This document shows, piece after piece, positions 10,691 to 17,989 of a stretch of 64,000 bases of DNA. Under the pieces are notes generated by a model that saw nothing but the letters and a program-made list of their open reading frames with translations, made no database searches and was not told where the DNA came from. The position numbers and the translations under genes were made by a program. Origin of the DNA: Fimbriimonadales bacterium (GTDB taxonomy: Bacteria > Armatimonadota > Fimbriimonadia > Fimbriimonadales > JABRVX01); the NCBI GenBank assembly GCA_045862955.1, contig BTVI01000015.1:12298-76297 (forward strand), written 5' to 3'. The stretch's first letter is position 1. Every line of letters begins with the position of its first letter.

Positions 10691-11638
10691 ATGGATCGAG
10701 CAGTGGCCATCACACTATGCGCAGCCGTCGCCGTTACGGCCAACGCCTTTACTCCTGCAACCGGCTATCGCACGGTTGACCTCGACCTATTCGGCTCAGC
10801 CATCGCCGTGTCGCCATCCGGCAAACTCGCAGTCGGTGAGGATGCCTTCGGTGGAGGCGCCCTAATACGGGTGTTCGACAGCGTCTTGCCCGGACGAAAC
10901 CTGCTCTACACGATCACCGCTCCGAGCGGCCACAACTGGCAGTTCTTGTCCGCGCTGACGTGGCAAGACGACGAAACCCTCATCATCGCCGAGAACGGCG
11001 ATATGGACACCGCCTATTCCGCGGTAGGACCCACCGTGACACCGCTTGCCCCCATCGGCTCCATTCCCAGCATCGCCGGGTTGACCCTCGGTTTCGGCGG
11101 CGATCTGTTCGCAACGGCTGCAACCGATCCAGGAACCGGAACGGTGTACCGACTTCACTCCGGTACCGTCACAGCGTTCGCCGGTTCCTTTGGTACCGGC
11201 TACCTCGGAGGCATCGCCTTCCTGGACGACGTCCTCTATGTTGCCGACACCAACGATCCCTTCTTCCTGGGCAACCCCGGGCAGGTGCATCGCTTCGCTT
11301 CGGACGGAAGCTATCTCGGAGCCATCTCCCTCGCCGATGGAGGCGGATCCGGGGTGGTAGACATCCTTTTCGACACCGAGGGAGACCTCATCGCAACGAC
11401 TGGCTCCACCCTCACCGTCAACAGTGTAACGCTCGGGACCTTCAGCGGGCCCTGGCCGTTCCCAACCTCTCTTGCCTACACGGGGTCCGGCTTCGAGCCG
11501 TTCTCCGGTACCGGGCTGCTGCTGGTAAACGGCACGTTCACGGAGATGGGTGGCATTTTCGGCATCACGCCCGTGCCCGAGCCGGGAGCCATCGCCCTGC
11601 TGCTGCCCGCGCTCGCACTCATCAGGAGGCGGAGGTGA
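10691..11638 (+). CDS. PEP-CTERM surface protein, putative beta-propeller
   Basis: Signal peptide; AAGGAG RBS; C-terminal VPEPGAIALLLPALALIRRRR. Confidence 0.85.
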   Translation: MDRAVAITLCAAVAVTANAFTPATGYRTVDLDLFGSAIAVSPSGKLAVGEDAFGGGALIRVFDSVLPGRNLLYTITAPSGHNWQFLSALTWQDDETLIIAENGDMDTAYSAVGPTVTPLAPIGSIPSIAGLTLGFGGDLFATAATDPGTGTVYRLHSGTVTAFAGSFGTGYLGGIAFLDDVLYVADTNDPFFLGNPGQVHRFASDGSYLGAISLADGGGSGVVDILFDTEGDLIATTGSTLTVNSVTLGTFSGPWPFPTSLAYTGSGFEPFSGTGLLLVNGTFTEMGGIFGITPVPEPGAIALLLPALALIRRRR

Positions 11639-12423
11639 TCCTCACCGCGCTCGCCATCCTGTATCAAGGCGTCTTTGGCCCGTCCGACTTCGCAACGAAG
11701 CTGTTCGACTACAACGGGGTGAACGGCGTGCCGGGATACAACGTGGATGCGACCAAAGTGCTGGGCTACCCCTCGCCTAACGCGACACCGTCGGTACCCG
11801 ACAACAGTCACCTCTTCTCATTCGGATGGGGAGGGTTCGTGACGGTCGGTTTCGACCGGCCAATCCGAAACGGCCCCGGACCGGACTTCATCGTCTTCGG
11901 CAACGCCTTCTATGCGGGCGGAGACCCGCTGTCGGTATGGCGCGAGCCGGGATTCGTCGAAGTCGGAGTAGACGTGGATGGTGACGGCGTGCCGAGCCAG
12001 CCAGACCGGTGGTACTTGCTCCGCGGATTTCCGGCCCCGCCCTTTCCCCTAGACCCGTACTTCTACGGTTGGTTCGAACCGGAACTCCCCTGGGCCTACG
12101 CAGACTGCACCCCGACGGACAATACGGGCAATCCCCTCCTCCCCGATAACCCTCTGTCGGTCGGAATCGACCCCGGCTCCGCGGGCGGGGATTCGATGGA
12201 CCTGGACTGGGCAGTGGATTGGACCACTGGCCTGCGCGTATGGCTGAAGGAGGCTCACTTCGTGCGCATCACGCACGCGCTGAACTCCTTCCACCCTGTT
12301 TTCGGGCCTTCGTCCACCGAGGTGGACGCGATCGCCATCGTGCACCCGGACGGCCCGCTCGCTGCCACGCCGGTACCCCGCAGTGAATCGAAGAACGAGG
12401 TGCCTCCGAGCGGACGTGGATAG
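11635..12423 (+). CDS. Cell-surface protein resembling the Bacteroides BtuH-type cobalamin-associated domain
   Basis: GTG overlaps upstream stop (GTGA) with GGAGG; FSFGWGGFVTVGFDRPIRNGPGPDFIVFGNAF...EPGFVEV...WYLL...GGD.MDLDWAVD...FVRI...STEVD pattern. Confidence 0.6.
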   Translation: MILTALAILYQGVFGPSDFATKLFDYNGVNGVPGYNVDATKVLGYPSPNATPSVPDNSHLFSFGWGGFVTVGFDRPIRNGPGPDFIVFGNAFYAGGDPLSVWREPGFVEVGVDVDGDGVPSQPDRWYLLRGFPAPPFPLDPYFYGWFEPELPWAYADCTPTDNTGNPLLPDNPLSVGIDPGSAGGDSMDLDWAVDWTTGLRVWLKEAHFVRITHALNSFHPVFGPSSTEVDAIAIVHPDGPLAATPVPRSESKNEVPPSGRG

Positions 12424-13195
12424 CAGAAGAGCCTTCACGCTAATCGAGCTGCTCGTGGTGATTGCGATCATCGCGGTCCTTGCCGGCATCCTCTTTCCGG
12501 TGTTCGCTTCTGCTCGAAAGCACAGCCACACTGCGAGATGCGCCGCCAACCTGCGGCAGCTCGTCCAGGCGAACCTCATGTATGCGGGAGATACCGGCAG
12601 GTACGTCCCCGCTGCACAGGACCTGTACGAGACCAATCGCCGACGGTGGTTCGGAGTGCGAGGCTCAGACGGGCGGTTCATCCCTCGGGATGGGCCGCTC
12701 GTCCCCTACCTCGAGGACGGCGGACTCCTCCGCCAGTGTCCGCTCTTCTCGACGAAGATTGGGTTCTCCCTCGGCGCGGGGGGCTACGTGTACAACCACA
12801 TCGCAGCCGGGTCCAACGTCTGGGACATGGGCTTCGTGCCCGAGGCCTACCACACTTCGCGAAGAGAAGGGAGCGTTGCTCGACCCGCCCAGGTGGCGAT
12901 GTTCGCGGACGGTGCACTCGATGTCGGCAGTCCCCGGGGTCTTGCCGAGTACACATTCCTCGAGCCGCCCGAAGAAGTGCTCCGACGGATGGGCAGCCCC
13001 TATTCGATGGACCCGTCGCTCCATTTCCGCCACTCCGGCCGGGTCCTGGTGGGTTACGCGGACGGCCACGTCGGCGCCGGCCGCCTAGCCCGAACCGTGG
13101 AGAGGAGCGGCGTGTACCCTCGGGCCAATCCCGCCGCGCATGGCCTCGGCTGGATAGCCCCCCTCGACGGCGAAACCCCCTACGATCCGCTGTAG
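12383..13195 (+). CDS. Prepilin-type N-terminal cleavage/methylation protein with H-X9-DG domain (DUF1559-like)
   Basis: AFTLIELLVVIAIIAVLAGILFPVF, CAANLRQL and FRHSGRVLVGYADGHV; true start may be GTG 12416. Confidence 0.88.
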   Translation: MNRRTRCLRADVDSRRAFTLIELLVVIAIIAVLAGILFPVFASARKHSHTARCAANLRQLVQANLMYAGDTGRYVPAAQDLYETNRRRWFGVRGSDGRFIPRDGPLVPYLEDGGLLRQCPLFSTKIGFSLGAGGYVYNHIAAGSNVWDMGFVPEAYHTSRREGSVARPAQVAMFADGALDVGSPRGLAEYTFLEPPEEVLRRMGSPYSMDPSLHFRHSGRVLVGYADGHVGAGRLARTVERSGVYPRANPAAHGLGWIAPLDGETPYDPL

Positions 13196-13369
13196 CGAGC
13201 TTCACAATCCTTGCCAACTCTTGGTGGATGCTTGCTGGCGAAGCGGCCCCGGTGGAAAGCCTACCGCTCGCGGTGGCTGCGCCCACACACCCGAGACATT
13301 CGTCTATACCAGGCTAACGATCCCTTAGCATCCGTGGTAGAATAAGGTAGCTACGCGTTTTCCTGACGA

Positions 13370-13418
13370 CGCGCAACATCCCCGTCCGTCCAACCCGGAC
13401 TGCGCGCCGAGGAAGGGG
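13370..13418 (+). promoter_or_regulatory. NAD+-I (nadA-motif)-like riboswitch, single aptamer
   Basis: CGCGC-AACATCCCC-GTCCG-loop-CGGAC-T-GCGCG; CCCC is complementary to GGGG (13415-13418) in the RBS; directly upstream of nadA. Confidence 0.7.
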
Positions 13419-13427
13419 TCGCAACCC

Positions 13428-14546
13428 GTGTATCAACCGCCTCTACCAGCGGAATACGTCTCGCTATCGGAGTCCGAGACCCATGAGCGCATCCAGGCCG
13501 CACGGCAGGCCCTCGGCAGCCGCTTGGTCATCTTGGGTCATCACTACCAGCGCGACGACATCATACGATACGCCGATTACCGGGGAGACAGCTACAAGCT
13601 GTGCCGGGACGCCGCCGCTCGACCCGAAGCGGATTACATCGTGTTCTGCGGAGTGCACTTCATGGCAGAGAGTGCCGACATTCTGTCCGCAGACCACCAG
13701 ATCGTCATCTTGCCCAACCTTTCGGCAGGATGCAGCATGGCCGACATGGCCAACACCTTTCAGGTTCGGCAGGCATGGAGGCAGCTCGGCGAGGTCACGG
13801 ACATCGAGCGGGTGGTCCCGATCACGTACATGAACTCCGCCGCCGCCCTCAAGGCCTTCGTCGGTGAGCGCGGTGGCGCCGTGTGCACCAGCTCCAACGC
13901 CTCGAAGGTGCTGTCCTGGGCACTGGGGCGGGGCGACAAGGTGCTGTTCTTCCCGGATCAGCATCTCGGTCGCAACACCGCCGTGCGCATGGGTTTCGAC
14001 CTGGACCGCGACATGCTGGTGTGGGATCCCGATCTGCCTTTGGGAGGCAACACGCCCGAGCGCATCCGCGAAGCCACGTTCCTGCTGTGGAAAGGTCACT
14101 GCTCCGTGCACATGCGCTTCACGCTAGAGCAGGTCCAACTCGCACGCAAGGTCCACCCCGGTATCAACGTCGTCGTGCACCCCGAGTGCACTAAGGACGT
14201 GGTGGATGCGGCCGACTGCTTCGGCTCCACCGAGTTCATCATCAAGACCGTGTCGGCAGGCGCCCCGGGCTCCAAGTGGGCTATCGGCACGGAGATCAAC
14301 CTGGTCAAGCGGCTGGCAGATGAGAACCCCGACAAGCTGATCTTCTGCCTCGATCCCATCACCTGCCCCTGCAGCACCATGTACCGCATACACCCTTCGT
14401 TCCTCCTGTGGGTGCTGGAGAACCTGGCGGCCGGACGCGTCGTCAACCGCATCGAGGTCCCTCCGCAGACGAAGCGCCACGCGCTGCAAGCGCTCCAACG
14501 CATGGTGACCATCACCGAGCAGTCAGCCGCCGCCTCCGCTATCTGA
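13428..14546 (+). CDS. nadA: Quinolinate synthase
   Basis: GHHYQRDD, VFCGVHFMAE, AGCSMADM, CTSSNA, PDQHLGRN, HPEC and CPCSTMYRI. Confidence 0.96.
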   Translation: MYQPPLPAEYVSLSESETHERIQAARQALGSRLVILGHHYQRDDIIRYADYRGDSYKLCRDAAARPEADYIVFCGVHFMAESADILSADHQIVILPNLSAGCSMADMANTFQVRQAWRQLGEVTDIERVVPITYMNSAAALKAFVGERGGAVCTSSNASKVLSWALGRGDKVLFFPDQHLGRNTAVRMGFDLDRDMLVWDPDLPLGGNTPERIREATFLLWKGHCSVHMRFTLEQVQLARKVHPGINVVVHPECTKDVVDAADCFGSTEFIIKTVSAGAPGSKWAIGTEINLVKRLADENPDKLIFCLDPITCPCSTMYRIHPSFLLWVLENLAAGRVVNRIEVPPQTKRHALQALQRMVTITEQSAAASAI

Positions 14547-14646: not shown

Positions 14647-14685
14647 AAAAAAAGGGAGGCCTGTCCCGCTGCTGCGGGACAGGCC
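14647..14685 (-). terminator. Intrinsic terminator (probably bidirectional)
   Basis: 12-bp stem GGCCTGTCCCGC/GCGGGACAGGCC with T7 tract on the minus strand; lies between convergent genes. Confidence 0.8.
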
Positions 14686-14719: not shown

Positions 14720-15409
14720 TTACTTGCGGCGGCGCAGAGCCAGAAGGCCCACGAGACCGGTTGCGATCGCAGCGATGCTGCCCGGCTCGGGGACGATCTT
14801 GATGTAGTTGTCCGTGATGTCCACGGAAGCGCCGACGCCGTCCAGAATGCGGGTCGAAAGGCCCGTACCGGTGTTGCGATTGTCGAATTTCCAATCGAGG
14901 ACCTGGCCGGGAAGCCCAGGGCCGCAGACGAAGTCGAACAGCATGACGTCCCAGTTCTTCGCCTTCGATGACTGGCCCGACACACCGATCAGCGAGTACA
15001 CGCCGCGGTTCGTGACGAACGGCTTGGTGCTGTCACCGGGGTCGACGGCCCAGTCGTACATCGGGCCATAGTCAGGCTGCCAGTGGATCTTGACCGGGAA
15101 CTGCGTGCCAGGAACGAGCTTGGAGTTGACCTCGGCGTCCCAAGTGTTGGCATCCGCGTCGGTCATGATCTGGTTGCCTTCGAGATCCAACGTGATCTGC
15201 ATCGTGCCCCACTGGAACGGCGGGTTAGTGTCCAGATCGTTGAAGTGGAACCAGATCTCGATTAGGTCGCCGGGGTTGGCCATAACCGCGCCCGCGTTGC
15301 TCATGCCGGTCGTAGCGTTCTTGAAGTAGAGCCTTGCCTCGTACGCTGCGAAGGAGCTGGTCGCCAGCGCCATCGCCAGTCCGAGGACTACCGTGTTTCG
15401 AATGCTCAT
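14720..15409 (-). CDS. PEP-CTERM surface protein (paralog 1)
   Basis: Signal peptide ending SSFA; C-terminal VPEPGSIAAIATGLVGLLALRRRK. Confidence 0.9.
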   Translation of the reverse strand: MSIRNTVVLGLAMALATSSFAAYEARLYFKNATTGMSNAGAVMANPGDLIEIWFHFNDLDTNPPFQWGTMQITLDLEGNQIMTDADANTWDAEVNSKLVPGTQFPVKIHWQPDYGPMYDWAVDPGDSTKPFVTNRGVYSLIGVSGQSSKAKNWDVMLFDFVCGPGLPGQVLDWKFDNRNTGTGLSTRILDGVGASVDITDNYIKIVPEPGSIAAIATGLVGLLALRRRK

Positions 15410-15844: not shown

Positions 15845-17060
15845 TGGGTTTCCGCCCTCGCGTGAATGACGCGGTGTGCTCGATGCCCCGGCCCGCTTCC
15901 GCCGGCCCAGATTGCCACGCAGAGAACGCAACGAGAGCCGCAGAGATCGCAGCCACCGAAAGGCGGCGTGAGGACAACGGTTCCCCCTGCAGCCCTGCGG
16001 AAGGGGGAACCTTAAGGAGGGGGTCCCCCTTGAGGATCTGCGGAAGGGGGAACCTTAACGAACGGTTCCCCCTGCAGCCCTGCGGAAGGGGGAACCTTAA
16101 GGAGGGGGTCCCCCTTGAGGATCTGCGGAAGGGGGAAACTTAACGAACGGTTCCCCCTGCAGCCCTGCGGAAGGGGGAACCTTAAGGAGGGGGTCCCTTC
16201 CCCCGGCCCGCGTCCGCCGGCCCAGCACCTACCGAAGGCTTGCCTCGCCCCCAAGGACCGCGCCGGGGCAACTGCGGCGCTTGCGCCGTCCTGGCGATCC
16301 TTTGGCCGGCCGAGCAGTGCGGCTCTGGCTCTCGTGGCAAGAACCCCCTCCCCAGCTTCGCAGGCCCTCCCCCTTCCGCAAGGCCTCCAGGGGGAGGGGC
16401 TATTCTCTATGCCCCGACCCGCCTCTCCAGATTGCCGCGCAGAGAACGCAACGAGAGCCGCAGAGATCGCAGCCACCGAAAGGCGGCGTGAGGACAACGG
16501 TTCCCCCTGCAGCCCTGCGGAAGGGGGAACCTTAAGGAGGGGTTCCCCCTGCAGCCCTGCGGAAGGGGGAACCTTAACGAACGGTTCCCCCTGCAGCCCT
16601 GCGGAAGGGGGAACCTTAAGGAGGGGGTCCCTTCCCCCGGCCCGCTTCCGCCGACCAGCAACTGCCGCCGGCATGCCTCGACCCCAAGGACCGCGCCGGG
16701 GCAACTGCGGCGCTTGCGCCGTCCTGGCGATCCTTTGGCCGGCCGAGCAGTGCGGCTCCGGCTCTCGTGGCAAGAACCCCCTCCCCAGCTTCGCAGCCCC
16801 TCCCCCTTCCGCAGAGCCTCCAGGGGGAGGGGCTATTCTCTATGCCCGACCCGCCTCTCCAGATTGCCGCGCAGAGAACGCAACGAGAGCCGCAGAGATC
16901 GCAGTCACCGAAAGGCGGCGTGAGGACAACGGTTCCCCCTGCAGCCCTGCGGAAGGGGGAACCTTAAGGAGGGGGTCCCTTCCCCCGGCCCGCGTCCGCC
17001 GGCCCAGCACGAACCGAAGGCTTGCCTCGCCCCCAAGGACCGCGCCGGGGCCTCGCCCCC
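15845..17060. repeat. Mosaic REP-like palindromic repeat array
   Basis: About 9 copies of GGTTCCCCCTGCAGCCCTGCGGAAGGGGGAACC or variants (42-43 bp local spacing) inside three larger repeated blocks; GTCATTCACGCGAGGGCGGAAACCC REP-like unit (minus strand) at the left edge. Confidence 0.85.
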
Positions 17061-17278
17061 CAACCCGCAGAAGTTCTATGCTCTCTCAGCGGCGCCAGAC
17101 CGCGAGTCCAGCCAGAGCCCATAGCAGTCCCGTCCCGTGACTCGTTTGTTCTCCTCCAAGCGAACCGCAGAGGTACGCAAGATAGAAGGCCCCGACCGGA
17201 GGCCGGGGCCAAACTAGTCTCAGACTATTCGCGAACGATTACGACGAACCGCACGCGATTCCTAGGAATCGCAGGCGA

Positions 17279-17989
17279 CTACTTCCGGCGGCGCAGGGCG
17301 AGAAGCCCGACCAGGCCAGTGGCAATCGCAGCGAAGGTGGACGGCTCGGGGACGATCTTGATGTAGTTATCGGTGATCTTAACCGAGGCGCCCTGATAGT
17401 CGAGGATTCGAGTCGACAGGCCGGTACCGGTGAGCCGGTTCTCGAACGCCCAGTGGAGCTCCTCGTTCGCGACGGCGCCGCCTGCCACGGTAAACGTGAA
17501 GAGCGTCTTGCTGAAGTTCCACGAAGGCGTCTTGTTGCCAGCGACACCGATCAGCGCATAGAGGCCCTTCGTCGCGACCTTCGGATACGTGTTATCGCTC
17601 GGGTCCACGGCGTTGTCGTACATGTCGCCGTAGTCCGGCTGCCAGAACACCTTAATCGGGAAGTTCGTCGGCGGAGTCAGAACGGCGCCGATCTGGGTAG
17701 CCCAGGTGTTTGCGTCGGCGTCGGTCATGATGGTCTTGCCGTCCAGAATGATGGTCGCCTGGAAGGTTCCCCACTTCTCCGTGTTGCCGGTCGTGTCATC
17801 CGCGAGGAAGAAATACTTGATGGCGATCTGGTCGCCGGGGGCAGCCAACAACGCACCAGCGTTGCTCGTACCCTTGGTAACGTTCTCGAACCACAGGCGA
17901 ACCTGATAGCCTGCAAAGCTCGGGGCGGTCAGTAGCGCGGCGAGGGCGCCGGCAACCACGACGTTTCGGATCTTCATGTGTCGGTCCAC
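17279..17989 (-). CDS. PEP-CTERM surface protein (paralog 2)
   Basis: Shares WQPDYG, TGTGLSTRILD and ITDNYIKIVPEP with 14720-15409; signal peptide; start may be ATG 17977. Confidence 0.9.
   Translation of the reverse strand: MDRHMKIRNVVVAGALAALLTAPSFAGYQVRLWFENVTKGTSNAGALLAAPGDQIAIKYFFLADDTTGNTEKWGTFQATIILDGKTIMTDADANTWATQIGAVLTPPTNFPIKVFWQPDYGDMYDNAVDPSDNTYPKVATKGLYALIGVAGNKTPSWNFSKTLFTFTVAGGAVANEELHWAFENRLTGTGLSTRILDYQGASVKITDNYIKIVPEPSTFAAIATGLVGLLALRRRK

Follow-up and report, generated by a model that had tools for sequence, protein, structure and literature searches.

A single nadA-motif (NAD+-I) stem-bulge resembling domain 2 precedes nadA in Armatimonadota

The nadA-motif or NAD+-I riboswitch (Rfam RF03013) has been described as a two-domain RNA. 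According to PMC6859854, all representatives are probably tandem and the single ones derive from cut metagenome reads, and in PMC10702441 it is stated that single-domain examples are not known. As described in PMC6859854, PMC7708056 and PMC10702441, domain 1 recognises just the ADP half of the ligand and fails to exclude ATP, the ribosome site is contained in domain 2, whose binding is weak or absent, and in current models the two domains have to dock. In the solved domains, the adenosine docks on the C6-G47 pair's minor groove beneath A8, and the pyrophosphate is linked by Mg2+ to the bulge's neck (PMC7708056, PMC7297122). The natural domain 2 is reported to bind ADP at 3.4 mM and a domain-1 mutant devoid of the brace to bind ADP weakly as well, and no binding was seen in ITC for the domain-1 mutants G36C and G38C (PMC7708056). 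Domain 2 is reported to show no ligand response by in-line probing (PMC6859854) or ITC (PMC10702441), and the C13A substitution weakened regulation in this domain (PMC10702441). The NAD+ concentration of E. coli is quoted as 2.6 mM (PMC6859854). NAD+-II (pnuC motif; PMC7749635) is, like the putative switch considered below, an NAD-related translational riboswitch, but it is described as having an unrelated fold, reading the nicotinamide half and standing before pnuC; the Rfam search of the region studied here gave no NAD+-II match.

The DNA analysed (hereafter the window) is a 64,000-nucleotide stretch of contig BTVI01000015.1 from a Fimbriimonadales genome (Armatimonadota; GCA_045862955.1; 97.55% complete). 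In agreement with this phylum, its RpoB segment matched a named Armatimonadota genome as one piece with 726 bits, and four named genomes from other phyla as two pieces with no more than 392 bits each. A preliminary description had noted a minimal nadA-motif candidate in the leader of nadA, and the segment at 13370-13406 is a genuine nadA-motif (NAD+-I) stem-bulge, located 21 nt 5' of an intact nadA. The strings on which that proposal relied were all found in place on the forward strand, i.e., TGGTAGAAT (13335-13343), CGCGT (13354-13358), CGCGC (13370-13374), AACATCCCC (13375-13383), GTCCG (13384-13388), CGGAC (13396-13400), T13401, GCGCG (13402-13406), GGGG (13415-13418) and GTG (13428). Several details of the fold required correction. 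T13401 is not bulged, as had been thought, but forms a pair with A13375, corresponding to A7-U46 of the crystal numbering (pair probability 0.97); of 92 distinct rows in the alignment, 91 have A-U and one has G-C here. The CGCGC/GCGCG helix is present, but with the A13375-T13401 pair P1 comprises 6 bp, which leaves the 8-nt ACAUCCCC as the bulge. The GGGG of the ribosome site ends 9 nt, rather than 10 nt, before the GTG. The resulting element consists of the P1 5' strand CGCGCA (13370-13375; C13374 = C6, A13375 = A7), the J1 bulge ACAUCCCC (13376-13383; A8 C9 A10 N11 C12-C15), which corresponds to the ADP/Mg2+ pocket in the solved domains (PMC7708056, PMC7297122), the P1a hairpin (13384-13400) and the P1 3' strand UGCGCG (13401-13406; T13401 = U46, G13402 = G47). 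P1a has 5 bp (GUCCG:CGGAC, with G16-C45 = G13384-C13400) and a 7-nt loop, and lacks both P1b and the AGYG internal loop. Upstream, the extended -10 promoter-like box TGGTAGAAT (13335-13343), recognised from its sequence, recurs unchanged in the congeneric genome G001 and as TGGTATTAT in G002, and transcription is predicted to start near 13349-13350. Public sequencing runs, which offered contigs only and at small shares, revealed neither a start site nor expression. The sigma-70 scan listed no promoter at the nadA leader, as a -35 match is absent; the -10 boxes of this genome show no -35 consensus.

The match of the Rfam nadA model at the element (13371-13407) scored 24.7 bits, with an E-value of 0.007 over the 1.5 kb searched, and stayed under the gathering score of 37.5; this was the top one of eight Rfam nadA matches across the genome. 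A covariance model built from relatives, the window sequence included, gave 52.2 bits here as the sole strong match in the genome, the next one reaching 18.3 bits. A second match to the bare pattern in the same genome lay antisense within a gene and was dismissed as a chance occurrence. The leader (13350-13428) is identical to that of the congener at 78 of 79 positions, and the same comparison gave 277 of 372 identical third codon positions in nadA and 26 of 60 identical bases upstream of 13294. The whole leader showed no excess stability over shuffled sequences (z -0.87).

The model was built from the 19 loci that carried one copy among the first 30 nadA loci (window included; the other 11 had none), and 151 genomes of the order were searched with it. 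The search returned 85 matches, 74 of them within 300 nt upstream of nadA, and all 69 matches of at least 28 bits stand upstream of this gene. Eleven weak matches away from nadA and four found by Rfam only were rejected, being located in open reading frames or lacking the stems. When 144 nadA leaders of the order were read directly, 75 had the motif and 69 did not, with 3/3, 34/96, 1/1, 22/26 and 15/18 motif-bearing leaders in families f1 to f5, respectively. Sampling 151 genomes across the phylum yielded a further 11 copies, located before nadA in three other families (from 29 fetched matches other than the window's own), 4 of 80 metagenome nadA loci carried an element of the window's type, and three further genomes from a class-wide Rfam survey were added to the copy set. 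The aligned copies include one from an unpublished genome (L031, G036), on which alone no claim is based.

In the 93 aligned copies, C6, A8, C9, A10, C12, C14, G16, C45 and G47 are invariant, and A7 and U46 are kept in 92, the exception being a single G7-C46 swap. The remaining bulge positions are less strict, with C13 being C in 89 copies (U in three, A in one) and C15 being C in 91; natural variants thus comprise C13U, C13A, C15U, C15A and G7-C46. The C6-G47 and G16-C45 pairs are formed in 92 of 92 distinct rows each. In this alignment, which was fitted to the model and whose rows are kin and not independent, 95.8% of the stem cells are paired, 209 cells show changes in both partners, and covariation scores 0.61, compared with 0.16 after shuffling and no more than 0.12 when partners are slid; an unfitted alignment of 19 rows gave the same picture. 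Changes on both sides occurred in eight of the ten pairs, and both stems covary, P1a doing so in three pairs besides the invariant G16-C45. Covariation in the nadA leaders of relatives, which had been suggested as a check on the candidate, was found together with an invariant pocket. We conclude that the element is almost certainly a selected cis-regulatory RNA of the nadA-motif family. That it might instead be what remains of a decayed tandem riboswitch, or a look-alike arisen by chance with no current role, appears highly improbable, given the invariant pocket and covarying stems in each of the order's five families and in three families elsewhere in the phylum. The sub-threshold Rfam score and the 69 motif-less leaders would fit such decay, and the bare pattern does arise by chance in many genomes: a scan of 185,579 species genomes, which served as a chance control and is silent on the range of the element, gave at least 116 matches, and among the matches listed none was beside nadA and one had both stems.

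The composition of the leaders differs from the published tandem. A scan allowing up to two mismatches detected no second bulge in the transcribed part of any of the 75 motif-bearing leaders, and in the control all 14 acidobacterial leaders gave two bulges with a stricter form of the bulge pattern. In 67 of the 75 leaders, the end of a -10-like hexamer lies 13-51 nt before C6, and the acidobacterial domains are 63-112 nt apart, so there is no room for an upstream domain 1. With the Rfam model, no genome of the window's class had more than one sub-threshold match, and none of the 151 reached the cut-off (best, 36.9 bits), as against 14 of 151 genomes around an acidobacterial centre, which did so twice each. 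The absence of domain 1 was judged by the bulge scan and the Rfam model; the new model, which found domain 2 in 5 and domain 1 in 0 of the 14 acidobacterial loci, is blind to domain 1 and hence no test for it. The span of G16-C45 is 10-23 nt in 92 of 93 copies versus 34-86 nt in the acidobacterial domain 1, which is too short for the 7-bp P1a, the AGYG loop and P1b to form. AGYG strings occurred four times among 72 parsed hairpins, none of them at the J2 position. At one locus (L058, genome G106), the P1a of the lone copy is long, spanning 35 nt, and has inner loops; no other copy nears the size of domain 1.

Judged by these sequence features, the element is a one-domain, domain-2-like member of the nadA-motif family and not a shortened domain 1. 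The earlier view of a one-aptamer version with a short P1a holds with respect to the single copy and the 5-bp P1a, but the counterpart was misplaced; the suspicion that the host belongs to a phylum other than Acidobacteria proved correct, the element being conserved among relatives in Armatimonadota. As in domain 2 (RF03013; PMC6859854, PMC7708056), P1 carries C6-G47 and A7-U46, the ACANCCCC bulge follows, G16-C45 opens P1a, the AGYG brace is absent, and the element lies directly 5' of the nadA ribosome site. In contrast to domain 2, it stands alone, its P1a is 10-23 nt rather than 16-92 nt long, the base pair 5:48 is mostly A-U and not U-A, rare changes of C13 and C15 are tolerated, and the position of the ribosome site varies, being within the P1 extension in the window's family and otherwise next to P1 or beyond additional hairpins. 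With domain 1 it shares the first-shell ADP/Mg2+ contacts described in PMC7297122, PMC7708056 and PMC10702441 (C6, A7, A8, C9, A10, C14, C15, G16, C45, U46 and G47), but without the 7-bp P1a, P1b and the AGYG loop the C13-G38 and C14-G36 pairs, to which micromolar affinity is ascribed, cannot form. The copies are set apart from canonical NAD+-I members since they show neither the published tandem architecture nor an Rfam score over the cut-off.

A different single-domain leader was observed at 27 of the 80 metagenome nadA loci (within L322-L390). It has CGACAUCCCC, G7-C46 and a conserved inner GGCGACCAGGCUGU, and the CCUGG in its upstream hairpin is complementary to the GGCGACCAGGCUGU segment. 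Both leader types place one ACANCCCC bulge before nadA; G7-C46, the longer P1a with an inner conserved loop and the upstream hairpin are absent from the window's type.

A search of freely accessible literature, including a 2026 preprint on intergenic families, retrieved no single-domain or Armatimonadota form. The single-domain variant of the NAD+-I riboswitch is apparently unpublished; metagenomic singletons in the supplements of PMC5737381, the discovery paper of 2017, and of PMC6859854 may include copies of this type. The roughly 90 natural copies, each a lone domain-2-like unit whose pocket is invariant, show selection on this architecture in the absence of domain 1, and argue against domain 2 being a mere docking partner or an NMN pocket. 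They thus provide a natural test case for what the second domain of the NAD+-I riboswitch does, and bear, as had been anticipated, on the open question of NAD+ sensing in this class. They also offer small natural constructs for the study of weak binding, Shine-Dalgarno pairing or a missing protein factor. A re-trained model would extend RF03013, whose cut-off misses all these copies.

Regarding the ligand, the invariant bases are exactly those contacting ADP and Mg2+ in the crystal structures, and the outward-facing N11 varies. This argues against the idea that the bulged hairpin is a protein site, or needs a protein or co-ligand which provides NAD+ specificity, blocks the ribosome or alters mRNA stability. 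We consider this unlikely, although an invariant pocket combined with downstream RNA differing widely in length and fold would suit a trans-acting partner, and auxiliary factors are left open in PMC6859854 and PMC10702441. The tandem form is reported to have repressed a reporter in the foreign host E. coli (PMC6859854), no candidate protein was found, nor were NiaR (PF02829) and NrtR (PF21906) domains in the window's genome at its 97.55% completeness. A lone pocket cannot by itself tell NAD+ from ATP, as only the ADP part is contacted. The element could be imagined to read the general pool of ADP-containing compounds (ATP, ADP) and to tie NAD synthesis to the energy state rather than to NAD+; the lone domain has no second pocket for nicotinamide, and the full-length class is described as binding ATP and ADP better than NAD+ (PMC10702441). 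We regard this as very unlikely, since the strong copies all stand before nadA only, the tandem form in cells followed NAD+ starvation and not amino-acid starvation (PMC6859854), and repression of nadA at high ATP would make little physiological sense.

Folding models suggest how the element might control nadA in the window. P1 is predicted to be prolonged by an extension missed in the preliminary description, in which UUUCCU (13359-13364) pairs with AGGAAG (13410-13415) and covers the ribosome site (pair probabilities 0.62-1.0). The 5' strand of the extension is this anti-Shine-Dalgarno sequence plus CG (13359-13368), and the 3' strand with the Shine-Dalgarno region is GAGGAAGGGG (13408-13418), assigned by pairing with the genome's own 16S tail at -7 to -9 kcal/mol; region 13405-13427 pairs with this tail at -8.7 kcal/mol. 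Equivalent anti-Shine-Dalgarno helices are UCCUUGG:CCAAGGA in G002 and ACCU:AGGU in G004. A small hairpin, GGGU-CGCA-ACCC (13416-13427; 4 bp, pair probabilities 0.7-0.8), lies between the Shine-Dalgarno sequence and the start codon, and GACC-GGU-GGUC occupies the same place in G002. The putative 5' switch strand UACGCGUU (13352-13359), derived from the folding model, is identical in the congener and was not seen in G002 and G004. It is predicted to pair either with GACGCG (13368-13373), which breaks P1 (ON), or through UACGC (13352-13356) with GUGUA (13428-13432) over the start codon (OFF). The suggested competition of CGCGT (13354-13358) for P1 is energetically plausible, and this helix would form first in transcription, but it was seen only in the window's genus. 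The rival helix with P1a reaches -14.1 kcal/mol and P1 with P1a -14.9 kcal/mol, a difference of less than 1 kcal/mol, and the complete OFF fold (anti-Shine-Dalgarno and start-codon helix) reaches -29.8 kcal/mol.

On balance, we slightly favour a role of the element as a translational OFF switch of nadA with low ligand affinity, acting when adenine nucleotides such as NAD+ abound. Transcription would start near 13349-13350, and the CGCGUU:GACGCG hairpin would form first and hide the 5' strand of P1 (ON). The ADP half of NAD+ together with Mg2+ would then dock on the C6-G47 pair and the ACAUCCCC bulge, in a pocket geometry taken from the solved domains, and the ligand would tip the near tie of the nascent RNA towards P1. 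P1 with its extension, followed by the start-codon helix, would close over the ribosome site and leave nadA untranslated. We infer the OFF polarity, the kinetic choice between the early hairpin (ON) and P1 (OFF), and a millimolar affinity, the last from the approximately 3.4 mM reported for ADP and the natural domain 2, which is near cellular NAD+. In the finished leader without ligand, the OFF fold is predicted to exceed the ON fold in stability by about 10 kcal/mol; therefore, switching in the window would have to be kinetic. Pairing of the ribosome site in or beside P1 is predicted for the window's family and G004 and is not general across the order, and the Shine-Dalgarno sequence of many leaders lies beside or well beyond P1. 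In an ensemble test of 71 leaders (G251 being omitted for a mis-parsed start codon, and G017, G030 and G205 for want of parsing), formation of the aptamer raised the cost of opening the ribosome site in 14 and lowered it in 23 (by more than 1 kcal/mol; median -0.4), so neither a shared expression platform nor a consistent direction of switching emerged.

The CCCC of the bulge had been proposed to pair with the GGGG of the ribosome site. Such pairing is possible in the window, but a perfect downstream partner of C12-C15 is present in just 7 of the 71 leaders, and in four of these the G's lie in the P1 extension. Blocking of the ribosome site by the P1 extension (UUUCCU:AGGAAG) is the better-supported of the two in the folding models. 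A related reading, in which the Shine-Dalgarno sequence would replace the missing J2 brace, so that C12-C15 and the ribosome site form a ligand-stabilised pseudoknot in the window's family and its nearest kin, seems quite unlikely. It draws on the match between position 13 and the ribosome site (C13/GGGG in the window's genome and the congener, U13/GGAG in G002, A13/GGUA in G004, which carries C13A), a pattern of three lineages spotted after the fact. The short P1a leaves the J2 site empty, GGGG occurs in just 89 of 754 crude ribosome-site windows of the genome, and C13 is reported to matter in domain 2 although it faces the solvent (PMC10702441). On the other hand, only 13 of 68 copies with CCC show a GGG within 20 nt upstream of the start, U13 fits an ordinary GGAG by default, L353 has U13 with no GGA near its start, and G057 (U15) shows no match. 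The same bases serve the stronger P1 extension, which also accounts for the AGGU of G004.

Returning to the lone domain as such, a broader and tentative proposal, which we hold to be possible rather than probable, is that the brace-less form is the working core of NAD+-I, a 35-nt switch of millimolar affinity which controls nadA unaided across the order, acidobacterial domain 1 and a pseudoknotted actinobacterial form having braced this pocket later; in the window's family, the Shine-Dalgarno sequence may have become such a brace. If true, the window's family would have a direct, ligand-coupled capture of the ribosome site.

The gene downstream, nadA (13428-14546, forward strand), encodes a quinolinate synthase of 372 aa with a GTG start; it scored 309 bits with TIGR00550 (cut-off 262.9) and matches solved NadA structures. 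It is followed by a 12-bp terminator-like hairpin (14658-14685), assigned from the hairpin and the gene layout and facing a convergent gene. The genes nadB and nadC are located elsewhere in the genome, and nadA probably forms a transcription unit of its own. Loss of the motif often accompanies loss of the leader, since a -10 hexamer 3-22 nt before the start was found in 32 of 69 motif-less nadA genes and 3 of 75 motif-bearing ones; many motif-less genes are leaderless, with a -10 box of the GTATAAT/GTAGAAT type a few bases before the start codon. In family f4 (e.g., L210, L201 and L239), the single-domain leader stands before a distant NadA with an N-terminal extension, approximately 45% identity to that of the window and a very long branch. 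As the same RNA precedes a very distant NadA, the f4 leader either outlived a change of the coding sequence (gene replacement) or moved. In this quick NadA tree, the branch joining the window's family, G004 and family f18 had a support of 84.

A palindrome, GCTAA-N7-TTAGC (13313-13329), the sole perfect copy in the genome, lies over the -35 position of the nadA promoter, and GCTAACGAT-N3-TTA was present at the same place, as the sole exact match, in G001 and G002, the upstream gene being different in G002. From its sequence and position, the palindrome is a candidate operator and a possible second layer of control; it was sought before nadB, nadC and rex and not found there. nadB begins 3 nt after rex, the gene of the NADH/NAD+ redox-sensing repressor (L445, 829-3066, contig C1 of the window's genome), and the two are probably in one operon. 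Directly upstream of nadA (10691-13195), the window contains a PEP-CTERM-like gene and genes for an unknown secreted protein and a protein with a prepilin-type N-terminus. The region at 15860-17140 has repeated translated motifs, e.g., SPCSPAEGGTLRRG, in overlapping frames; it looks like intergenic repeats and is flanked by paralogous PEP-CTERM genes (14720-15409 and 17279-17989).
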